Origin: Candidatus Aenigmatarchaeota archaeon
GTDB taxonomy: Archaea; Aenigmatarchaeota; Aenigmatarchaeia; CG10238-14
DNA length: 64,000 bases
Reading direction: 5' to 3'
Assembly (NCBI GenBank): GCA_030018415.1
Contig: JASEGC010000004.1
Location: forward strand, 10,470-74,469
Positions 1-46,987 of this stretch are shown here, piece by piece. Within the stretch, counting starts at the first letter, position 1. Each line of letters begins with the position of its first letter. The notes beneath the pieces are model-generated. The model worked only from the letters and a program-made list of their open reading frames with translations, searched no databases and was not told where the DNA came from. The translations under genes and the position numbers were made by a program.

Positions 1-3000
1 GTAACTACACTTGGCAGACTGGTTGTCCTGGTTCAGGTTTTGATTCAAAGTTGGCTTTGTACCCACTCAACGTTACTTTAAGTGGGAGTGCATCTCCTTA
101 CTACATTATCGAAAGGAATGTGAGTAATACTAACGTAACATTGAAAGATAATTTGAACGTGACTGTAATTAGACCCCTTCCAAGCCAGATAATCCATGAG
201 CAGGAGAATGTCACTCTGAATTCCACGGTCTCAGATTCTTGCGGTGCTCCGAGTGAGAGTTACACAGTAACTTGGTATGGACAAAACACAAAGGCATGTA
301 CTCTGACGAATCCTGTCGCTACAGGCGATAACACAACCTGGCAACTTCCAGATGTATGTGTGCCACAAGTTTTAACTATAACAGCAAATGCAACTGGAGG
401 ATTCTACAATTCAAGTCAAAAGAGTGTTCAAATCTACTTGTATGGATGGTCTAGAGTGAGCATAAAAGACCCTCTTAACAACACAGAGATCAATAGGTCA
501 GCATACGGTGAAAAATACAATGTTGTTTGTTTTGTAGAGGACGTTAATCTTTCGAGTGGTATTGGTAGTTACTCAGTCAATTTCTGGTATTCCAATTCCT
601 CTGGAACTTATACCATGGGCAGTAATGCCACTACGTCAAACGGAAACGCTACACATGCATGGAACATCTCTAATTTTGCTCTATCAGAGGGATTTTACGA
701 TGTAAAGTGTAACATCTCAGATGACCCAAACCTTTACTACAATGCTTCTCTACCCGAAGATGTATCAAGAGATGTGAGGATAGTCGGAAGTTCTGACATT
801 TACCCACCAGAATTTTTGGAAGTTATTGCAACCTCTGCTAAACAATACGTTGAAAACGTTACCATAAACGCAAACATCTCTGATTTTTATGGAATCGATA
901 AAGTCTGGGCTTACATAACCTTTCCGAACAAGACTTTTGCTATCCACAGTTTAGCGAATACTTCTTCTAACAATAAAAAAGGTATATGGAACATATCTTT
1001 GAACTTTACAGACTTGGGAGATTATGATTTTATTCTTTACGCAAACGATACTAGTGGAAACAATGCCAGTGCCACAGGATGGTTTGAAGTATACCCAGCA
1101 ACAGTTCAATTCTACGGTAATACAACAGATACCGATGGAAATAAAGTATCTGTTGAGTTCATTTTCTACAGAAACGGAACTAATTCAATAATTCATACCA
1201 ATAGAACCACCACATCAAATGCGGAATATAACTTCACGATACGTAAAAGGATATACGATATAGAAATAAGAGTGTTTAATCATACTATTAAGTTCTTGGA
1301 AGTAAACATAACCAACAACACTGCAAATTCTGTAAGGGATTTCGATACTTTCACTGCTACGGTCGGTGACATAATAGGGGTCAGAAATTATCTCAAAACA
1401 TTGACGGTCAGGAGTACACTCAATTCCAGTAATGTAAACCTTACTATGAATTACTCAGATGTTATTGGTATTTATACAGACCCCACCTATCCTTATACGT
1501 TCAGAGAGACTGATTTAGATGTTTACAAATGTAGTGATTTTAATTTGACTGGAGAAACTTGGACTTGTTCTGGAGGTTGGACAAATCTAGATGGAAGTCC
1601 TGTTTTAGCTTCTGATATTATCACTATAACAACTAGTAGTCTTTCGGGATTCATATTGGGAGATACAGCCAATCCTAATGACGGCGTATGCGACAGGGGT
1701 GAAACCTGTGCCTATGATCCTACCTGTTGTGGTGGGCCGCCTGGTCAACAAGTTATTGGTGGTGGAGGAGGTGGAGCTGCAGCAAGACCTGAGTGTGGAA
1801 ATGGTATATGTGAACCAGGTGAAAATCGAGATAACTGTCCACAAGACTGTGGGACACCAGAGACACTCTTCAGTCTGAGAACAAATTTAACCGACATCCA
1901 ACTCGACCCTGGACAAGAAGAAACTTATGCGCTCTGGATAACCAACAACATAAACACTAACATAAACGCCTCTATCTCCATATTCGGAACTGCCAGCAAG
2001 TTCATCACTCTTGAAAAAACATCTGTAATGATAGAATCTAAAAAAGAGGAAATCGTCAAAATCTACGTTAAGATTCCTATCGATGAAGGCATGGCCACAT
2101 ACTCAGGACAGATATCCGTAACTTCTTACAACAAAACTCAAACACTTCCTGTAACTTTAAAAGTTTCTGCTAAGGGCGAGAAAGAGCTAGATGTGATAAT
2201 AAATGCATTGGACAAGAAAGTTGGTGTAAACGATACTGCAAAATTCCAAATTACAATATACAACACAGGATACATAAGAAAATTCTACGCAGACTTTCTC
2301 TATATAATAAAGGATTATTCGACTGAAGAAATTGCTTACATGGAGAATGAAACTAAATACATAGAAAGAACACAGTCATTTGTTAAAAACATTGATTTGT
2401 CTCAAATAAGTCTAAAACCTGGGAGATACTTCTTAGAGTTAAAGATAAAGTATGACGATAAAGAAACAACAGCATCAGACGACTTTGAAGTCATAGTATC
2501 TTTCTGGACCACTCGACGCATCAATCAAATAACTATCATTGTTCTGACCACGACATCTATAGTCTCCATACTCTACGCAAGGAAAAGATACTTTGAATGG
2601 AAGATCGCTAAGGCAAGGTACATTTTCCCGATAGATTTCGGAAAATTACCTAGAGGCAAGATATGGTTGGGTAAGATAGCTGAAACCGAGAGAAAGACGT
2701 ACTTCGACATGAATGAACTCAAAACTCATGTTTTAGTGGCAGGAGCAACTGGTGCTGGAAAAACAGTATCTGCCAGCATTTTTGTAGAGGAATTGTTGAG
2801 AGAAAAAATTCCAGTGATAGTGTTCGACCCGACAGCACAATGGACTGGATTTGTGAGGCCGTGTAGAGATACCAACCTATTGAAATACTACAAAGAATTT
2901 GGCATGAGTATAAACGATACGAGACCTTACACTGGGATGATATACGAAATAACTGATCCTAACGTACAGATAGATTTCAAGAAGTACATGAACCCAGGAG

Positions 3001-3692
3001 AGATAACGGTCTTCACACTCAACAAACTTAAACCAAGACAGTATGATGTTGCTGTGAGGAATATAATAGATACTATATTCGCACAGGGTTGGGAGGAATC
3101 GACAAAACTGAGGATGGTTGTGGTTTTTGATGAAGTACATCGTTTGTTGGAGAAGTATGGTGGTACAGGGGGGTACATTTCTCTAGAAAGAGCATGCAGA
3201 GAATTCAGAAAGTGGGGTATTGGACTAATAATGGTTTCACAAGTTTTGTCAGACTTTAAAGAAGCAATTAAAGGTAATGTTTTAACAGAAGTGCAATTAC
3301 ACACAAAATCATTGGGCGACTTAGCTAGGGTCGAGAAGAAATACGGCCTTGAGTATGCAAAGAGAGTGACAAAGTTAGAAGTTGGTGTTGGCTTAGTTCA
3401 GAATCCGAAGTACAACGAAGGTAGGCCATACTTTGTCGCTTTTAGACCGACTTTACACGAGCCACATAAGATTTCCGATAGAGAATTGGAGACTTACAAA
3501 GAATACGCTTCGCTACTCGAAATCATAGAATCCAACATTGAAGCGATAGAAAAAACTGGCGAAGACACATTCGAACTCAGAACCGAGCTCAAGCTTGCTA
3601 AGGATAAGTTAAAGAAAGGTAGGTTCAGGATGGCTAAAATATATATTGATTCTTTGAGAAAACATTTAAAGATAGGTGAGGAAAATACCTGA
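1..3692 (+). CDS. Large membrane-anchored surface protein, 5' end cut by the window edge. It has a sequon-rich ectodomain, Cys-rich modules, one TM helix and a C-terminal cytoplasmic HerA/FtsK-like (DUF87-type) P-loop ATPase.
   Basis: The frame of ORF 51..3692 stays open back to nt 3, so the N-terminus lies outside the window. There are dozens of N-x-S/T sequons and a CGNGICEPGENRDNCPQDCG module (~1790-1855). The hydrophobic helix INQITIIVLTTTSIVSILYA lies at ~2520-2580. Walker A is VAGATGAGKT (~2740-2770) and the Walker B-like motif is MVVVFDEVH. Confidence 0.75.
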   Translation, partial: NYTWQTGCPGSGFDSKLALYPLNVTLSGSASPYYIIERNVSNTNVTLKDNLNVTVIRPLPSQIIHEQENVTLNSTVSDSCGAPSESYTVTWYGQNTKACTLTNPVATGDNTTWQLPDVCVPQVLTITANATGGFYNSSQKSVQIYLYGWSRVSIKDPLNNTEINRSAYGEKYNVVCFVEDVNLSSGIGSYSVNFWYSNSSGTYTMGSNATTSNGNATHAWNISNFALSEGFYDVKCNISDDPNLYYNASLPEDVSRDVRIVGSSDIYPPEFLEVIATSAKQYVENVTINANISDFYGIDKVWAYITFPNKTFAIHSLANTSSNNKKGIWNISLNFTDLGDYDFILYANDTSGNNASATGWFEVYPATVQFYGNTTDTDGNKVSVEFIFYRNGTNSIIHTNRTTTSNAEYNFTIRKRIYDIEIRVFNHTIKFLEVNITNNTANSVRDFDTFTATVGDIIGVRNYLKTLTVRSTLNSSNVNLTMNYSDVIGIYTDPTYPYTFRETDLDVYKCSDFNLTGETWTCSGGWTNLDGSPVLASDIITITTSSLSGFILGDTANPNDGVCDRGETCAYDPTCCGGPPGQQVIGGGGGGAAARPECGNGICEPGENRDNCPQDCGTPETLFSLRTNLTDIQLDPGQEETYALWITNNINTNINASISIFGTASKFITLEKTSVMIESKKEEIVKIYVKIPIDEGMATYSGQISVTSYNKTQTLPVTLKVSAKGEKELDVIINALDKKVGVNDTAKFQITIYNTGYIRKFYADFLYIIKDYSTEEIAYMENETKYIERTQSFVKNIDLSQISLKPGRYFLELKIKYDDKETTASDDFEVIVSFWTTRRINQITIIVLTTTSIVSILYARKRYFEWKIAKARYIFPIDFGKLPRGKIWLGKIAETERKTYFDMNELKTHVLVAGATGAGKTVSASIFVEELLREKIPVIVFDPTAQWTGFVRPCRDTNLLKYYKEFGMSINDTRPYTGMIYEITDPNVQIDFKKYMNPGEITVFTLNKLKPRQYDVAVRNIIDTIFAQGWEESTKLRMVVVFDEVHRLLEKYGGTGGYISLERACREFRKWGIGLIMVSQVLSDFKEAIKGNVLTEVQLHTKSLGDLARVEKKYGLEYAKRVTKLEVGVGLVQNPKYNEGRPYFVAFRPTLHEPHKISDRELETYKEYASLLEIIESNIEAIEKTGEDTFELRTELKLAKDKLKKGRFRMAKIYIDSLRKHLKIGEENT

Positions 3693-4872
3693 AGAAAAGA
3701 AATCTAAATTTGGAAAATTTCTTGGTATGTTTAAAGGTAAAGAAAAAACTGAAGTAAAACCTGTTCTTGAAGAACCTGAAATAGAAGTTGAAGAAATGCC
3801 AGAATTTGAAGAAAAAGAAAGTCCGGAGAAACCAAAAGAAGAATCTGTAGAAACAGAAGTAGAGAAAACTCCTGAAGAAATGCAAAAAGAAGAGGAAGAA
3901 AAATTAAAAGAAGCTGAGAAAGAAAAGAGAAAAAAAGAAGCAGAAGAATTAAAGAAAAGATATGGTGTGATTAAAGAAATACCCGAGAGAAGAGTAGAAG
4001 AAGAATACATTGAAAAACCTGAAGGAGTGAGAGAGGAGTTTGAGGCTGAAACAGACATACCTGCCTTGCTTCTAAGGATGGAGAAGATCGATGGTAAATT
4101 GGAAATCTTAGATAGGTCAAGGGATGATATGACTGAAAGGATCATGCAGCTGGCTGGAGAGATAGGAGAGTTGAGGACGATGATAATGGAAAGGGAAAGA
4201 TCTTTCGATGAAATAAAATCCGATTTTGAAAAGGTCAAAGATACAGTAAGTGGGCTTGAACCGATAAGAATAAAGAGAGATTTCGAGAGGAGAAAGATGG
4301 AGATACTAGAGAACAAAGCTAAGATCGAACAATTAGAAACTTTGGTTAAAGCCTTGGGAGAGGAGAGCAAAAAATTCAGAGAACTCATGGAAAAAATAAA
4401 GAGTTTCGAGAACATCATAAACATTTCCTACGACATCGACAGAAAAGTTTCAGAGATCAACGAGATAAAAGATTATGCGAGCAAAGTTGGTTCAAAGGTT
4501 GAGAGTATATTCTCCGAGTTGAACGCGAAGGTAAGCGAGCTCGAGAGTCAGAGGGAGAAGATAGAAAAACTCGATGAGTTGACGGTTGAGATAACTAAGA
4601 TGTTGGATGAGATCAGCGTGAGGTTCACAAGGTTTGTGGAAGAGAAAGATTTGAAAGATTTTAAGAAAACTATAGAAGAGGATGTGAAAAAAATGTTGGA
4701 GAGTAAGGCACCAGTAGTGAAGATCAAAGGGGATCAGGTGATACAAGATCAAATATCACAATTGTCTACTCGTCTCTTAAAGTTGAAATCTGTAGTGGAG
4801 AGTCAGAATACAGTAATAAACAACATCATCGATTATCTGAGTGGGGGAGAGGCAACTCCAGCAGAAGCTTAG
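3676..4872 (+). CDS. Glu/Lys-rich coiled-coil protein
   Basis: 398-aa ORF with heptad-like E/K/L-rich composition throughout. GTG 3676 overlaps the upstream ORF by 17 nt; an alternative in-frame ATG is at 3727. Confidence 0.6.
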   Translation: MRKIPEEKKSKFGKFLGMFKGKEKTEVKPVLEEPEIEVEEMPEFEEKESPEKPKEESVETEVEKTPEEMQKEEEEKLKEAEKEKRKKEAEELKKRYGVIKEIPERRVEEEYIEKPEGVREEFEAETDIPALLLRMEKIDGKLEILDRSRDDMTERIMQLAGEIGELRTMIMERERSFDEIKSDFEKVKDTVSGLEPIRIKRDFERRKMEILENKAKIEQLETLVKALGEESKKFRELMEKIKSFENIINISYDIDRKVSEINEIKDYASKVGSKVESIFSELNAKVSELESQREKIEKLDELTVEITKMLDEISVRFTRFVEEKDLKDFKKTIEEDVKKMLESKAPVVKIKGDQVIQDQISQLSTRLLKLKSVVESQNTVINNIIDYLSGGEATPAEA

Positions 4873-13270: not shown

Positions 13271-13360
13271 GGGCCTGTAGCTCAGTTTGGATGCAAACGA
13301 GCCAAAAAGAGTAGGTGGCTTCTAACCACAAGGTCGAGGGTTCGAATCCCTTCAGGCCCA
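13271..13360 (+). tRNA. tRNA-Arg (anticodon TCT) with a ~15-nt non-canonical intron in the D-loop (model: intron 13293-13307)
   Basis: The 7-bp acceptor is GGGCCTG/CAGGCCC, the T-arm is GAGGG-TTCGAAT-CCCTT and the anticodon loop is CTTCTAA. The D-stem GCTC/GAGT only forms after removal of an insert between GGAT and AGAGT. The mature length would be 75 nt. Confidence 0.75.
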
Positions 13361-24772: not shown

Positions 24773-25303
24773 ATGATAGAAGTCCGTTTTCATGGAAGAG
24801 GGGGACAAGGAGTAGTTACCAGTGCTTACTTACTCGCCCTCGCAGCCTTTAAGGAGGGAAAGTTCTGCCAAGCCTTTCCATTCTTCGGAACAGAGAGAAG
24901 AGGTGCTCCTGTCACATCTTTTGCTAGGATAGACAAAAAATTCATCAGAACAAGAGAGCGTGTCTATAACCCGGATTATGTCGTTGTTTTAGATTCAACT
25001 CTTTTGGATGTTGTCGATGTCGATGAAGGCATAAAGGAGAGGGGAATGATAATTATTAATACGAACAAAGATGTTAATCTACAGACGAAGGCTACTGTAA
25101 AGACTGTCGATGCAACAGATATAGCTCTAAGAGTCATCGGCAAACCTTTCGTTAACACATCGATGATTGGGGCATTAGTAGGAGCTACAGGTATAGTAAA
25201 ATTGGAGTCTGTTATCGATGTGATAAGGGAAAGATTTCCGGAAGAGATAGCCAACAAAAACATCGAAGCCGAAAAACAAACTTATGAGAAAATTAGGGGA
25301 TGA
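24773..25303 (+). CDS. porG: Pyruvate/2-oxoacid:ferredoxin oxidoreductase gamma subunit
   Basis: The N-terminus is RFHGRGGQGVVTSA, and it is the first gene of a four-gene por cluster. Confidence 0.9.
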   Translation: MIEVRFHGRGGQGVVTSAYLLALAAFKEGKFCQAFPFFGTERRGAPVTSFARIDKKFIRTRERVYNPDYVVVLDSTLLDVVDVDEGIKERGMIIINTNKDVNLQTKATVKTVDATDIALRVIGKPFVNTSMIGALVGATGIVKLESVIDVIRERFPEEIANKNIEAEKQTYEKIRG

Positions 25304-25304
25304 T

Positions 25305-25559
25305 ATGGAACCTGGAGGAGTAATAAAAGACGTTGGGAGTTCAAGAAAAGTTAAGACTGGATCCTGGAGAATTTTTAAGCCTATAGTTATCGATAAATGC
25401 ACTGGTTGTGGTATCTGTGTTCAATTCTGTCCTGAGGGTTGTATAATGATAAACGAGGACAGAAAGGCTGAAGTTGATTATGATTATTGTAAGGGTTGTT
25501 TGATCTGTGTTAATGAATGCCCTATTAAAGCCATAAAAAGTGAGAGGGAGGTTAAATAA
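25305..25559 (+). CDS. porD: Pyruvate/2-oxoacid:ferredoxin oxidoreductase delta subunit (2x[4Fe-4S] ferredoxin-like)
   Basis: The two cluster motifs are [12 protein letters not shown] and [15 protein letters not shown] 25305 lies just after the porG stop, and the stop overlaps the porA ATG (TAATG). Confidence 0.9.
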
Positions 25560-26735
25560 TGGTAAGACACATCATGGAAGGCAGCAAAGTTGTAGCGGAA
25601 GCTATCTTTCTTTGCAAGCCAGATGTGGTTAGTGCCTATCCTATAACACCGCAAAGCATTCATTCATTTTGAATGGTGCGCGGATACTCATATAGTCGAG
25701 GAACTGGCTCAATTGATAGCTGATGGAAGAATTAAGTCTAGGTTTTTGGAAGTTGAGTCGGAGTTTTCAGCGATATCAAGCGTTGCTGGTGCTGTTGCAG
25801 CTGGATCAAGAGCTTTCACTGCTACATGCTCCCAAGGTCTGGCGTTGATGCATGAAGTTTTATTTGCAATAGCAGGGATGAGGTTACCTGTAGTAATGGT
25901 TGTTACTAACAGAGCATTGTCTTCACCCATCAATATTTGGAATGATTGCCAAGATTCTATCTCTGAAAGGGATTCTGGATGGATCCAGTTGTACGTCGAG
26001 ACTGTTCAAGAAGCTGTCGATACCATAATTCAGGCTTACAAGATAGCTGAGGACAACAGAGTTCTCTTACCAGTCATGGTTTGTATGGATGGTTTTATCT
26101 TGACTCATACTGTTGAACCTGTTGAATTGCCAGATGATGTGGAAGTTAAAAAATTCTTACCAAAGTACAAACCAAACCATGCATTCTTGGACCCAACAAG
26201 ACCCATGACACTCGGACCATTCACCTATCCTGAGCCTTATTTCAAGTTGAGAAAGGAACTTTCCTTAGCTATTGATAACTCAAAGATTATCATATCTGAA
26301 GTCAATGAAGAATTCGGGGAGATGTTCAAGAGAAAGTATGGCAACGGCCTGATAGAGGAATACAAGAATGATAAGAAGATAGCTATAGTTTCCATGGGTT
26401 CTGTCTGCGGGACGATAAAATGTGTTGTTGATTCTAGGAAGGATACTGGTTTAGTGAGGATAAGATGCTACAGACCCCTCCCGAAAGAAGATTTGATTGA
26501 AGCCTTAAAAGGAAAAGAAATCGTGATCGTCCTCGACAAGAATATCTCTCTCGGCCTTGGCTCTGGGAGTGTTTTTTCTGAAGTTCGTGATGTTTTGTAT
26601 AGTTTGAAAGATAGACCAAAAGTTGTCGGATGTGTTGCAGGTTTAGGTGGAACAGACATCAAGAGTAAGGACATCAATAGATTGATCGATGAGTCTAAGA
26701 AGATGAAGGACGGAGAAGTGGTGTGGTTGATATGA
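25559..26735 (+). CDS. porA: Pyruvate/2-oxoacid:ferredoxin oxidoreductase alpha subunit, interrupted by a 31-nt intervening sequence (exons 25559-25654 and 25686-26735)
   Basis: Exon 1 reads [32 protein letters not shown]. Exon 2 reads [31 protein letters not shown]...[13 protein letters not shown]. The two frames differ by +1 and are rejoined by removing 31 nt. Unspliced, the ORF stops at TGA 25670-25672. Confidence 0.85.
25655..25685 (+). other. Candidate bulge-helix-bulge (relaxed HBh') intron within the porA mRNA
   Basis: A 4-bp helix forms between 25649-52 CCGC and 25680-83 GCGG. It is flanked by 3-nt unpaired AAA (25653-55) and ATA (25684-86). An internal hairpin forms from GCAT/GTGC plus CATTCA/TGAATG. 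Cleavage after the second bulge nucleotide on both sides restores the frame. Confidence 0.55.
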
Positions 26736-27625
26736 ATGATGATTTGATATCTCCAGGACACAGGACGTGTGCAGGCTGTGGTTCCATCCTTGCAGCCAGA
26801 CATATGTTAAAAGCAACTGGGAGGGATGTCATCATATGTGAATCAACAGGATGTCTTGAGGTAACATCCACTCAATACCCGTTGACGTCGTGGAAAGTCC
26901 CATGGATTCATGTTCTGTTTGAGAACGCTGTCTCTGTTGCCGTTGGTGTGAAGGCAGCGCTATGGGCACAAGGGAATGAACACACACAAGTGATCGCGTT
27001 TGGCGGTGACGGTGGAATTGTAGACATTGGTTTTGGGGCAGTAAGCGGAGCTTTGGAGAGGAATGATGATATCATGATAATAACTTACGATAACGAGGCT
27101 TATGCCAACACTGGGATACAGAGGTCTGGTGCAACACCGTTTGGAGCAAGTACAGGCACATCTCCTCATGGTAAAGTGTCTATCGGTAAAAAAGTATGGA
27201 AGAAGAATGTGCCGATGATCGCTGTGGCGCATGGTGCTGGGTATGTTGCTTCTGCGAGCATTGCCTATCCTAAAGATTTGCAGGATAAAATCAAGAAAGC
27301 TATGTCGATAAAAGGAACAAGATACATTCACATCCATACTCCTTGTCCTGTGGGATGGGGGTTTGATTCTTCCAAAACCATAGAGATTGCTAGGTTGGCT
27401 GTTCAAACTGGAATGTGGATTCTTTTTGAGATAGAAGATGGGAAATTCAAGAAAATGTTTAGACCGACAGAATTGATGCCTGTTGAGAATTATTTGAGGA
27501 TGCAGAAGAGGTTTGAACACCTGAAAGAAGAAGAGATAAAGATCATTCAAGACCATATCAACCAGACTTGGAAGGAATTGGATAATCTGGAGAAGAGTGG
27601 GGTTAATTTAAGGACTATACTGTAG
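26732..27625 (+). CDS. porB: Pyruvate/2-oxoacid:ferredoxin oxidoreductase beta subunit (TPP-binding)
   Basis: The Cys motif is CAGCG...C and the TPP motif is GGDGGIVDIG...YDNEAYANTG. ATG 26732 overlaps the porA stop (ATGA). Confidence 0.9.
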   Translation: MNDDLISPGHRTCAGCGSILAARHMLKATGRDVIICESTGCLEVTSTQYPLTSWKVPWIHVLFENAVSVAVGVKAALWAQGNEHTQVIAFGGDGGIVDIGFGAVSGALERNDDIMIITYDNEAYANTGIQRSGATPFGASTGTSPHGKVSIGKKVWKKNVPMIAVAHGAGYVASASIAYPKDLQDKIKKAMSIKGTRYIHIHTPCPVGWGFDSSKTIEIARLAVQTGMWILFEIEDGKFKKMFRPTELMPVENYLRMQKRFEHLKEEEIKIIQDHINQTWKELDNLEKSGVNLRTIL

Positions 27626-43580: not shown

Positions 43581-43781
43581 ATGGCATATACTTCCTATTC
43601 TGAGGATGTTAAAGGGTTGAGAGATATGTTGACGAGGTTGAATAAAGATAGGTTAAAAAACATAGAAAGATTAAGAAAAGATAAAAACCTGAAAAAGGTT
43701 AGGATTAAGAAGGATTTACCCCTCGGTATAAGACTCGGACTCATGAAAATGGGGTTTGACGTCGAATATAAGGAGAATTAA
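43581..43781 (+). CDS. Small basic protein (hypothetical)
   Basis: 66-aa ORF; its 3' end overlaps the rtcA stop region by 4 nt (convergent). Confidence 0.3.
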   Translation: MAYTSYSEDVKGLRDMLTRLNKDRLKNIERLRKDKNLKKVRIKKDLPLGIRLGLMKMGFDVEYKEN

Positions 43782-44815
43782 GCCTTAAAACCAATCCCCT
43801 CTACAGAAATCTCTCTTTTGTCTTTATCGACTTTAAATTCAACCGGCAATATTTCCTCTATAACTTGAATGTTCGTTCGACAATGATCTGTTATTTCCTC
43901 AACTTTAATTCGAGATTCACCCTTAGCTAAGGCAAGAAAGACGAGTATTTGATCTGCCATGAACTTATCCAAGGCAGCCCCAGATTTTAAAGATTTTAAC
44001 AGTTCTTCTGCTGCTTTCTCCCCTACAATCTCTGCTCTCACTCCTCTTTCACCAAGACAATCTCCCCCAAGGATAGAATTTTCGCAAACAGCATAACAAG
44101 TTATGCTAGTCCCAGGACTCAAAGATTCGACAGATTTATAACTCATGAAAACTTCTGTGTTGGGATAATGATACTGAATCGTCCTCAATGCCGATCGACC
44201 CTGCCTTTCTGCTATATCTTTTGGCAAACTGCCACAGACAGAGTAGATTTGAATGTTAAGGATATCCCCCCTATCTAAACGATTGAACGGAATCAATTTT
44301 TTCGTTGGTTTGGATCTGACTATTACCTTTCCTCCTCCTTTCGGGTAATAACCATGCTTGATTATATCCAGACTCAAATCTGTCCCCATCATGTTCAGAA
44401 TTGGATAAGTCACGTATTTTATGTATTGGATGGTGGGAGACCATCTCGTCTCTGTCCCGCCGATTATTTCGAGAGTAATAGGTTTATCGTTGAAAATCAA
44501 GAGTGGAGTGATAGTTTGAAGGAGAAGACCTATGCTGCCTGCTGTGCCAATATCAATTCTTCTATCGCAGACTTTAAATTCTTTGGGTGTGAACTCAACT
44601 TCAAGAGAAGATTCTTCCAAACCCTTTATCTCGGCTTTGCAAAATTCACCCAAGACTTTAATTCCCATGAGATGTTGGGGTCTTAAACCAGGCTTACCTC
44701 CTTTTTTCCCTTTTCTTATATCGATGATCTTGACAGGTTTTGATGTTAATGCTGAAAGTCCTATTGCTGTCCTAAGTAATTGACCTCCGCCTATAGATCC
44801 GTCTATGATTATCAT
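43778..44815 (-). CDS. rtcA: RNA 3'-terminal phosphate cyclase
   Basis: N-terminal IDGSIGGGQLLRTAIGLSAL and GLRPQHL, 345 aa. Confidence 0.9.
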   Translation of the reverse strand: MIIIDGSIGGGQLLRTAIGLSALTSKPVKIIDIRKGKKGGKPGLRPQHLMGIKVLGEFCKAEIKGLEESSLEVEFTPKEFKVCDRRIDIGTAGSIGLLLQTITPLLIFNDKPITLEIIGGTETRWSPTIQYIKYVTYPILNMMGTDLSLDIIKHGYYPKGGGKVIVRSKPTKKLIPFNRLDRGDILNIQIYSVCGSLPKDIAERQGRSALRTIQYHYPNTEVFMSYKSVESLSPGTSITCYAVCENSILGGDCLGERGVRAEIVGEKAAEELLKSLKSGAALDKFMADQILVFLALAKGESRIKVEEITDHCRTNIQVIEEILPVEFKVDKDKREISVEGIGFKA

Positions 44816-45709: not shown

Positions 45710-46987
45710 TTATTCTACAGTATAGATCTTATCATCTTTAGGAGCCAAAGCATCAAAACCGTGTTCTTCTCTCAATTCTTGTGCAAACCTTTGAGTGTTG
45801 TCTCCATGTACGCAGAAGACTTTGTCTGGGTTCGTTCTCTTCACAAAATTGAACAGCTCTGTTCTTGATGCATGAGAGCTAAAATCGAACTTCCTGACAG
45901 ACATCTTCAGTTCTAAATCCAGATCTTCATGAATGTACCTTCCTGTCTCCAAAAGAGTTGCTCCCTCTGTGCCAGGAACTTGAAAACCAGTTAAAATCAG
46001 GGTGCATTCCTCCCTATCGAACATTTTCTCTATGTAATGGGTAACAGGACCTCCAGTCAACATCCCACTAGTTGTAACGATAGCACAAGGTTTTTTAATG
46101 ATTTTTTTCCTCATCGCGGAATTGGTTATCGACTTTACCTCAAGTCTTACCAATGCCTTTTTCACACTGTTGTACTCTCTCTGTAACTCTGGGTAGGAGT
46201 TTATTATGTTCGTTGCTTTCTTACCCATACCGTCCAAGTAGATCGGACAACCCAACTCATACTCATCCAAAGTTAGGATAATCTCTTGCGTTCTAGCGAT
46301 AGCAAAGCAAGAAATCAAAGCTACGCCATTGTTTGCCAAAGTTTCTTCTACGGCTTCAACCATCTTTCTCTCTTCTTTTAGGCGATCAGGATGTTCTCTA
46401 TCGGAATAGGTACTCTCTGTTATCAGAACATCAACTTCTGGTATGTCTTTATCTGCTCCTGAGATAAGCCTGGTGTCAGACAGCCTAAAATCACCTGTAT
46501 AAAGTATCCTCTTGTTCCCAGTCTCCAGCAGGATCATACCAGAACCAGGGATGTGACCAGCATCTAAAAAGGTTACTCTCACCCTACCAATCTTAAAAGG
46601 TTTTTTGTACTCGACAGCTTTAAAGTGTCTAACAGCAATATTTATATCCCTTTTCTGATATCTCTCTGGCTCTTCTTCATGTCTCGAGATTTTGTAAGAA
46701 TCGATTAAGAGCATTTTAGACAGAGGACGGGTTATGTCTAACGCATAGACAGGACAGGGTTGATGTTGATGGTATAGCATAGGAATTGCACCACAATGGT
46801 CTAGATGAGAGTGAGAAAGTAGGATTGCATCCAGTTTTGTTTTAACTTCTTTCGGATATTCCGTCGGCTTGACGTTTATTTTGACGCCATAATCCAACAA
46901 CAACCTTTCTGAGTCAGTATCGAGAAGAACAGCAGATCTTCCCACCTCCCTTGTGGCTCCTAAAAAAGATAATCGCATCTCTCGCAC
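45710..46987 (-). CDS. Metallo-beta-lactamase/beta-CASP ribonuclease (aCPSF2-like, no KH domains)
   Basis: MBL motif LSHSHLDHCG; downstream beta-CASP region with conserved D/H (ESTYSD, FSSHA, VHGD). Confidence 0.85.
   Translation of the reverse strand: MREMRLSFLGATREVGRSAVLLDTDSERLLLDYGVKINVKPTEYPKEVKTKLDAILLSHSHLDHCGAIPMLYHQHQPCPVYALDITRPLSKMLLIDSYKISRHEEEPERYQKRDINIAVRHFKAVEYKKPFKIGRVRVTFLDAGHIPGSGMILLETGNKRILYTGDFRLSDTRLISGADKDIPEVDVLITESTYSDREHPDRLKEERKMVEAVEETLANNGVALISCFAIARTQEIILTLDEYELGCPIYLDGMGKKATNIINSYPELQREYNSVKKALVRLEVKSITNSAMRKKIIKKPCAIVTTSGMLTGGPVTHYIEKMFDREECTLILTGFQVPGTEGATLLETGRYIHEDLDLELKMSVRKFDFSSHASRTELFNFVKRTNPDKVFCVHGDNTQRFAQELREEHGFDALAPKDDKIYTVE

Follow-up and report, generated by a model that had tools for sequence, protein, structure and literature searches.

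The por operon and its interrupted porA gene

The DNA considered here is a stretch of 64,000 nucleotides (nt), referred to as the window, from a Candidatus Aenigmatarchaeota archaeon (GenBank assembly GCA_030018415.1, contig JASEGC010000004.1, positions 10,470 to 74,469 of the forward strand). Coordinates without a further label are positions in the window. It contains the porGDAB genes for pyruvate:ferredoxin oxidoreductase (PFOR), and porA is interrupted by 31 nt. This insert is very probably an archaeal intron of the bulge-helix-bulge (BHB) type, in its relaxed HBh' form, in a member of the DPANN archaea. Homologues of the PheRS alpha subunit encoded in the window that carry a name are all assigned to Aenigmarchaeota or Aenigmatarchaeota, with identities of 55-67%.

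The gamma subunit gene porG (24773-25303, + strand) is intact and matches the Pfam family POR (E = 3e-40). It is followed by porD (25284-25559, +), which encodes the delta subunit (2 x 4Fe-4S) and matches Pfam Fer4 families. The stop codon of porD overlaps the start codon of porA in the sequence TAATG. The gene for the beta subunit, porB (26723-27625, +), is intact as well, overlaps the end of porA and encodes a protein that binds thiamine pyrophosphate (Pfam TPP_enzyme_C). The first description of this locus, made from the letters of the window and hereafter called the sequence-only reading, had presented porG, porD and porB as intact, and the Pfam matches for all three bear this out.

The first part of porA, exon 1 (25559-25654, +), was delimited from the sequence and consists of 32 codons that end in YPITPQ, the last codon being CAA (25652-54). 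Exon 2 (25686-26735, +), recognized by sequence and Pfam, begins with THIVEEL and comprises 349 codons plus a stop. Read unspliced from the ATG at 25559, the 32 codons to YPITPQ are followed by SIHSF and the stop codon TGA (25670-72). The frame of exon 2 has a TAA at 25644-46, and its first possible start is the TTG at 25713. Because of this upstream stop and the lack of a start before 25713, the conserved THIVEELAQ codons are untranslatable in the unspliced sequence. When the 31 nt between the exons (25655-25685, +; AGCAUUCAUUCAUUUUGAAUGGUGCGCGGAU) are deleted, a PorA protein of 381 amino acids (aa) is obtained in which YPITPQ|THIVEEL is continuous. The predicted junction peptide of the spliced protein is ...AYPITPQTHIVEE..., and Pfam POR_N matches residues 15-239 unbroken across the junction. 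Excision of 25656-25686 would give the identical product. All coordinates of the sequence-only reading for the break and the resumption of the frame proved correct. So did its claim that the exact deletion of 25655-25685 restores 381 codons, and the resulting junction equals that of natural intron-less alleles.

Homologous inserts in related porA alleles

The assignment of the 31 nt as an intron is supported by homologous inserts of 20-36 nt at the same site in relatives. When the restored PorA was used as the query of a protein search, full-length relatives of 381 aa, ~86% identical and with an uninterrupted YPITPQTHIVE, were obtained, as was a series of 339-350-aa calls that start just past the YPITPQ motif. 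From the contigs fetched for the search matches and from one metagenome pattern scan, 13 distinct porA alleles were obtained that carry an insert between YPITPQ and THI(V/S)E, at one codon boundary. The insert is 20 nt long in one allele, 31 nt in six, 32 nt in three, and 34, 35 and 36 nt in one each. An in-frame stop codon lies 2-6 codons into every insert (13/13); the 36-nt insert is in frame, yet stop-bearing. Four more protein clusters begin with an out-of-frame translation of exon 1 and are thus also insert-bearing. Altogether, the insert interrupts 16 of the 120 PorA clusters closest to the PorA of the window. The metagenome DNA-pattern scan gave 27 matches, eight of which are true porA introns, the rest being chance matches. 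A scan of a genome collection with the restored PorA found mostly distant methanogen or bacterial porA genes, and one relative at 82% (L008) whose N-terminus is missing.

The intron-bearing alleles diverge from the PorA of the window by as far as 61% identity, and their exons show no further lesions. Some of the more distant ones are labelled Nanoarchaeota. The alignment of porA from relatives, which the sequence-only reading had proposed as a check, was carried out. It is the decisive evidence and strongly favours an intron, as it places the insert at the same codon in the 13 alleles, with covariation, and precise intron-less alleles exist. That the insert is an assembly or sequencing artefact is hardly conceivable. 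This explanation is effectively refuted because homologous inserts occur in independent assemblies from four sources (JGI, ENA, Logan and NCBI) and from many samples.

The surroundings of porA vary among the relatives. In a distant, Nanoarchaeota-labelled clade (L090, L092, L093, L121), one to six open reading frames (ORFs) are inserted between porA and porB, including NTP_transf_2/HepT toxin-antitoxin pairs, asparaginase and RidA. In the same clade, porG and porD are not found upstream of porA where the contig covers the upstream region. A reverse transcriptase gene (RVT_1; L081:1-187, -) lies upstream of the por operon in one locus, and a gene for an HNH endonuclease (L086:3094-3549, -) lies just downstream of porB in another.

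Predicted fold and cut sites

The minimum-energy structure of the transcript region 25630-25710 was computed with RNAfold. It is the helix-bulge-hairpin arrangement that the sequence-only reading had drawn. The 5' strand of the central helix H, CCGC (25649-25652, +), is made of the Pro codon and the first base of the Gln codon. It pairs with GCGG (25680-25683, +) within the intron, as seen with both RNAfold and RNAalifold. Next to it lies the 5' bulge AAA (25653-25655, +), with the predicted cut after 25654. This bulge is AAA in 13/13 alleles, and RNAalifold leaves its three columns unpaired. The intron-internal hairpin h' (25656-25679, +) was predicted by RNAfold as GCAU-U-CAUUCA / UGAAUG-GUGC. 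At the 3' splice site, the 'bulge' AUA (25684-25686, +), with the predicted cut after 25685, is situated within a 7-nt unpaired stretch (25684-25690). The trinucleotide is AAA in 12/13 alleles, and AUA occurs only in the allele of the window. The distal outer helix given by RNAfold is formed by CUAUA (25641-25645, +) and UAUAG (25691-25695, +). The fold of the sequence-only reading can be refined in one respect, as the 3' site belongs to an internal loop of 3 x 7 nt in which ACA faces AUACUCA.

The canonical hBHBh' motif has a 3-nt bulge on each strand, placed 3' of the respective helix strand, outer and inner helices (h and h') that abut the bulges, and a central helix of 4 base pairs (bp). 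In porA, the central helix has 4 bp and is complete in 11/13 alleles, and h' abuts the 5' bulge. The outer helix, however, is displaced by 3 and 4 unpaired nt, and the 3' site is an internal loop, in the relatives as in the window. The relaxed HBh' form is defined by a central helix, one well-formed bulge with its adjoining inner helix, and a disrupted second site (PMC5829648), all of which are found here. The porA intron was therefore classed as HBh' and not as hBHBh', because its 3' site is not a clean bulge. The sequence-only reading had named the same class, in agreement with the published definition. It had also placed the cuts after the second nucleotide of each bulge, which is the rule stated for the intron of cbf5 (PMC2738675). 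Cutting in silico by this rule gives a functional-looking product, the 381-aa PorA with its unbroken POR_N domain.

The thermodynamics of the fold alone are weak evidence, because its z-score against shuffled sequences is only -2.1. The position of the fold is more specific: when the 31 nt were shuffled 10^6 times, 203-490 shuffles (2-5 x 10^-4) placed a 4-bp helix with an adjoining inner helix at the frame-restoring positions. The helix-bulge-hairpin motif was found once in the window. A permissive scan of the window for BHB motifs that join ORFs was far too loose and was replaced by a stricter version, in which porA is the sole convincing case. The other candidates of the strict scan merely bridge adjacent genes or rely on AT-only helices with inner stems of 2-3 bp. 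A strict BHB scan of 331 kb of related loci gave nothing besides porA. Only two tRNAs were found in the window with Rfam. A self-splicing group I or group II intron was rejected, as the insert of 20-36 nt has no ribozyme core.

Three pairs of ORFs on the + strand of the window overlap (51-3692/3676-4872, 31648-32364/32216-32623 and 40771-41139/41072-41497). The ORF at 51-3692 encodes a HerA/DUF87-like protein of 1213 aa, and the following ORF of 398 aa has no Pfam match. The three pairs may reflect frameshifts or ordinary overlaps; in the strict scan, no BHB motif was found that would convincingly join any of them.

Structure conservation and exon constraint

The 13 alleles share a common layout, ACA-CC(G/A)C-AA|A-[hairpin]-G(C/U)(G/A)G-A(A/U)|A-CNC. 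The central helix is CCGC/GCGG, and in three alleles CCAC/GUGG, where a synonymous change in the Pro codon of the exon is matched at the 3' end of the intron. The sequences of the inner hairpin differ (GCAU..., GCGUUAUUC..., UUGCUCAG..., GCAC..., UUCAAUAA...), and all hairpins close directly on the bulge. At least five clearly distinct intron sequence types share one architecture.

Covariation was assessed in a plain MAFFT alignment that was not fitted to the structure (alignment A1). As controls, the pairing partners were slid by 1-3 columns. In the alignment, 84.5% of the cells are paired, compared to 27-49% in the slid controls, and the covariation score is 0.366, compared to 0.05-0.16. The central helix pair between columns 18 and 53 is G-C in ten alleles and A-U in three. 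RNAalifold, run without any hint, recovered the central helix together with the 3-nt bulge and the basal part of the inner helix; 5/8 of the pairs show compensatory changes. In the distal outer helix, the pair between columns 9 and 66 is A-U in four alleles, U-A in four and G-C in one, and is unpaired in four. It is possible that this helix is a real element.

The observations on the helix bear on the idea of a split gene, in which a 37-aa peptide from exon 1 and a separately initiated C-terminal PorA would be made and no RNA would be joined. For every allele, gene callers indeed predict ORFs of 339-350 aa further downstream. The starts of these ORFs, however, are not conserved; they are TTG, GTG or ATG at varying codons, and in the window none occurs before codon 10 of exon 2. 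A split gene would also leave the conservation of the untranslatable THIVEEL codons and the compensatory helix between exon and intron without a reason, which makes it a very improbable explanation.

Both exons are under purifying constraint. Among the 13 alleles, the ratio of nonsynonymous to synonymous differences (pN/pS) is 0.275 for exon 1 and 0.225 for the first 60 codons of exon 2, with synonymous sites near saturation (pS 0.68-0.79). It follows that exon 1 is still translated. The same values speak against a porA pseudogene in a decaying operon. Although the DNA reading frame contains a frameshift and a stop, the same lesion has been kept in at least 13 divergent alleles that have no other lesions in the exons, pN/pS is 0.23-0.28, and porG, porD and porB are intact. 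The pseudogene explanation is effectively refuted by these comparative data, and next to no weight is given to it.

In the intron-bearing alleles, the codons at the junction are nearly uniform, beyond what the protein demands: 13/13 use CAA for Gln, 13/13 use CCG or CCA for Pro, and 12/13 use ACA for Thr. Among 61 intron-less alleles, which are mostly distant relatives, the Gln codon is CAG in 75% and the Pro codon CCT or CCC in 62%, and the AT-rich subset is alike. Such a codon bias is what would be produced by a helix and a bulge that are partly built from exon bases.

Translational bypassing was also considered. In this case, the ribosome would hop over the insert, as it does in gene 60 of phage T4 and at the mitochondrial 'byp' elements. 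The insert is short and has a hairpin and an early stop, which would suit a bypass. Nevertheless, the putative take-off and landing codons are unmatched in 13/13 alleles (CAA, with GAA or GAU before exon 2), and further codons lie between the take-off codon and the stop. Moreover, a covarying helix between exon and intron and two fixed A-rich trinucleotides are foreign to bypass elements. Bypassing is thus very unlikely.

Intron-less alleles and distribution

Natural intron-less alleles (L121, L122) join exactly at CA(A/G)|AC(N), i.e., between Q and T. Presence and absence of the intron can occur at short distance. For instance, the intron-less PorA P0123 and the intron-bearing P0102 belong to one cluster at 90% identity. 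The 15 intron-bearing tips are dispersed over a neighbour-joining tree of 119 PorA sequences, and Fitch parsimony requires 15 changes. The nearest neighbours of the intron-bearing tips are intron-less at 86-97% protein identity, some pairs being 94-97% identical. The intron sequence types, in turn, follow the PorA groups. This distribution suggests that the intron is old and was precisely lost many times, that it spread by gene conversion among relatives, or both. The AAA present at both junctions amounts to a 3-nt direct repeat, which by itself could permit a precise deletion of the intron at the DNA level.

One of the intron-less alleles, L121, has a further 51-nt in-frame segment near the C-terminus (SSRSASRNSKPSEPCSE, L121:~4036-4086), which is absent from the 94%-identical L093. 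No BHB motif was evident in this segment by visual inspection.

A tRNA intron and the splicing enzymes

The window contains a second candidate for the same type of processing. A gene for tRNA-Arg(TCT) (13271-13360, +), recognized by its match to the Rfam tRNA model and by a 22-nt insert in the D-loop, carries a 15-nt D-loop intron (13293-13307). ARAGORN misses this tRNA. It accepts a 75-nt tRNA-Arg(TCT) after 13293-13307 have been removed by the cut rule applied to porA. The layout of the tRNA intron, GCUC AGU UUGG AU|G CAAACGAG CCAA AA|A GAGU, is relaxed as in porA. It follows that the genome probably relies on an endonuclease able to process short introns that sit at non-canonical positions and have a relaxed motif, which lends indirect support to an EndA of broad specificity in the host. 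Cleavage of relaxed sites is a property of the broad-specificity EndA types that are found in several DPANN lineages (PMC5829648; PMC12397907).

Genes with a role in RNA-end processing are present in the window. They encode an RNA 3'-terminal phosphate cyclase (RtcA; 43781-44815, -) and a beta-CASP/RMMBL ribonuclease (45713-46987, -). Both are relevant to the chemistry of RtcB-type ligation but are not splicing enzymes themselves.

The insert might instead be excised from the RNA by machinery other than EndA and RtcB, e.g., by an endonuclease that recognizes hairpins, and its likeness to a BHB motif would then be coincidental. No EndA or RtcB gene was found by Pfam in the 64-kb window, and the 3' site of porA is non-canonical, both of which would fit such a system. 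However, the features that are conserved among the alleles are those that define the BHB motif, namely a helix of 4 bp, a bulge of 3 nt and cut positions behind the second bulge nucleotide on both sides. Furthermore, this cut rule is also required by a tRNA of the genome, and nothing calls for an unknown system. Other machinery is therefore unlikely, though somewhat less so than bypassing or a split gene.

Proposed splicing of the porA transcript

The relaxed BHB intron remains the favoured explanation, and the following course of events is proposed for it. In the porGDAB transcript, CCGC at the end of exon 1 and GCGG at the 3' end of the intron would pair to form the 4-bp central helix. The AAA bulge and the intron hairpin would mark the 5' site, and the A(A/U)A just 3' of the helix would mark the 3' site. 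The tRNA-splicing endonuclease EndA would cut after the second nucleotide of each trinucleotide. An RtcB-type ligase would then join CAA|ACU, so that YPITPQ|THIVEEL is restored in a 381-aa PorA. We infer that the porA intron is spliced in vivo and that EndA and RtcB are the enzymes that cut and join it.

Several points weigh against a BHB intron. The enzymes named are not encoded in the window by the Pfam search described above, the 3' site deviates from a canonical 3-nt bulge, and the outer helix, besides being displaced, has only moderate support. In L090 and L092, two alleles that are related to each other, the central helix contains a C.A mismatch. The covariation counts do not represent independent events, because the alleles are phylogenetically related. 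Finally, the exact spliced PorA proteins of ten alleles are absent from a collection of 15 billion proteins, a result that is uninformative.

The sequence-only reading had regarded splicing as an obligatory switch for PFOR expression. The part of this claim that holds is that removal of the insert is obligatory for a full-length PorA; nothing shows regulation. The intron is more probably a passenger, either selfish or neutral, than a switch.

A LAGLIDADG endonuclease gene linked to porA

In at least six intron-bearing lineages, an ORF of 404-431 aa is located on the opposite strand between porD and exon 1 of porA. The lineages are L081, L116, L084/85/105, L087, L088/89/100 and L106; the ORF is absent from the window. 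The genes lie directly upstream of porA and are divergent from it, all on the - strand (L081:1523-2788, L116:8676-9941, L084:520-1815, L087:1598-2812, L088:1604-2833 and L106:4725-5342). In L106, only a truncated remnant of 205 aa is left, and in L081 there is no porG or porD upstream among the annotated genes. An AT-rich spacer separates the start of this gene from the start of porA; it measures ~20-70 nt or less in five lineages and 195 nt in L106.

The ORF matches Pfam LAGLIDADG_3 above the curated cut-off. It contains two LAGLIDADG motifs, and the catalytic positions D120 and E215 are invariant in 26 members. A confident predicted model (predicted local distance difference test score, pLDDT, 92.5) has a fold that matches the intein endonuclease cores of TliVMA and PI-PfuI as well as I-Tsp061I and I-DmoI, and more weakly WhiA. 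No significant match in the PDB was obtained by sequence. According to the motifs and the model, the ORF is a double-motif LAGLIDADG homing endonuclease, and apparently an active one. The family is small, with 36 clusters in 5.8 billion, and all its taxonomic labels are DPANN.

An intein is also found in one of the intron-bearing alleles. The porA of L095/L101 (P0042, 642 aa) carries, in addition to its 31-nt intron, an intein (Hint + LAGLIDADG) at another conserved site, NIW|C(D/N)H. The linked endonuclease has no significant similarity to this intein, and the two are therefore independent elements.

The endonuclease and the intron seem to have been associated for a long time. Endonuclease identities of 85%, ~63% and ~57% go along with PorA identities of 90%, 72% and 63%, and this tracking argues that the association is old. 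In three close intron-less lineages, there is no endonuclease gene, and porD and porA are adjacent. Most of the endonuclease-bearing loci were found via intron-bearing porA, so this pattern is subject to ascertainment bias. A less biased check is provided by four endonuclease clusters that coincide with PorA clusters in the exact length of their longest contig. All four (4/4) are intron-bearing, for which the probability by chance is roughly (16/120)^4. Neither the endonuclease family nor the intron pattern was found in scans of viral contigs, so these are not viral elements.

In the ENA sample ERZ27275860, L085, with intron and endonuclease gene, was found together with L123, which has an intron-less porA and no endonuclease gene. 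Potential donors and recipients of homing therefore co-occur in one metagenome.

As a tentative and rather doubtful proposal, the mini-intron and the endonuclease may form one mobile unit that spreads by collaborative homing, a model whose predictions agree with the pattern described (PMC6083498; PMC2790892). The endonuclease would cut an intron-less porA at or near YPITPQ|THIVE, whereas the intron would split this target and protect its carrier. Through repair of the break, the recipient would acquire copies of the intron as well as of the endonuclease gene. The allele of the window would represent a stage after loss of the endonuclease. Ordinary homing of a free-standing endonuclease gene, with the intron carried along by co-conversion, would fit the data equally well. 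A role of the linked endonuclease as a domesticated regulator fits less well.

Significance

Since 2002, a requirement for BHB splicing has been reported for a single archaeal protein gene family, cbf5 of some Crenarchaeota. Work on its pre-mRNA intron reportedly includes Watanabe 2002 and Yoshinari 2006. The statement of the sequence-only reading that BHB introns in archaeal protein genes are essentially known from cbf5 agrees with the literature, as three papers on EndA and archaeal introns, from 2009, 2018 and 2025, name only cbf5 for pre-mRNA (PMC2738675; PMC5829648; PMC12397907). A full-text literature search for BHB introns within genes that encode proteins, in DPANN and in metagenomes found none besides cbf5. 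With its probable intron, porA would be only the second archaeal protein gene family known to have a BHB intron, and it would add a new gene, a new archaeal group and an enzyme of central metabolism. A second family would show that BHB splicing of mRNA is not a curiosity of one gene, all the more since it would affect a core enzyme of energy metabolism in DPANN.

The intron also has practical consequences for annotation. Because of it, the proteins in 16 of the 120 PorA clusters nearest to that of the window are annotated as truncated at the N-terminus or with a wrong start. Metabolic reconstructions of DPANN may therefore wrongly score PFOR as broken. Moreover, the question of how mini-introns originate and spread was raised by Yokobori et al. 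for cbf5 (PMC2738675). Presence and absence of the intron at 94-97% PorA identity, together with a linked endonuclease, makes the origin, spread and loss of archaeal mRNA mini-introns testable. If the collaborative homing proposed above were true, it would be the first case on a BHB intron spliced by proteins, and it would give a concrete origin for archaeal mRNA mini-introns.

Comparison with known systems

The mRNAs of HAC1 and XBP1 undergo unconventional splicing, in which Ire1 acts together with Trl1 or RtcB. As proposed for porA, a small frame-changing intron is removed by cuts of a protein endonuclease in stem-loops, and the ends are joined by a tRNA ligase. In contrast to porA, these systems are eukaryotic, use another nuclease and are regulated by stress.

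Collaborative homing has been described for the psbA group I intron of cyanophages and the free-standing endonuclease F-CphI (PMC6083498), and trans-homing for mobE of phage T4 (PMC2790892). In these systems, the endonuclease cuts the intron-less allele, and the intron and the endonuclease gene move together. They resemble porA in that an intron free of endonuclease lies beside a free-standing endonuclease gene. Their introns are self-splicing group I introns of phages, whereas the porA intron is archaeal and predicted to be spliced by proteins.

Archaeal rRNA genes contain BHB introns with LAGLIDADG endonucleases such as I-DmoI and I-Tsp061I. The combination of a BHB intron with a double-motif endonuclease is shared with porA, and the predicted fold of the porA-linked protein matches that of I-DmoI and I-Tsp061I. 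The differences lie in the host gene, which is protein-coding for porA, and in the place of the endonuclease gene. The latter is located outside the intron and outside porA, on the opposite strand and ~100-170 nt upstream of the intron.

The tRNA introns of the HBh'/hBH type in Crenarchaeota, Nanoarchaeota and ARMAN belong to the same motif class as the porA intron, and the tRNA-Arg of the window has one (PMC5829648; PMC12397907). Such non-canonical sites are cleaved only by the broad-specificity EndA types described in the same papers. Unlike these introns, the porA substrate is an mRNA within an operon transcript, and the exon side of its helix is constrained by codons.

The intron of cbf5 in Crenarchaeota (PMC2738675) has much in common with that of porA. 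Both are short (16-44 bp in cbf5, 20-36 nt in porA), lie in a highly conserved coding segment and have an unconventional, relaxed BHB motif, the cuts (predicted for porA) lying between the second and third nucleotides of the bulge. Both have to be removed for the protein to be made, and both show a patchy gain and loss among close relatives. The porA intron thus shares with cbf5 a short length, a conserved segment, the same site across species and the existence of intron-less relatives. Nonetheless, the two differ in several respects. The product of cbf5 is an RNA-modification enzyme and its hosts are Sulfolobales or Desulfurococcales, whereas porA serves central carbon and energy metabolism in DPANN. 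Splicing has been demonstrated for cbf5 and is predicted for porA. Lastly, a link to homing endonucleases has only been speculated for cbf5, whereas a LAGLIDADG gene is physically linked to porA in several lineages.

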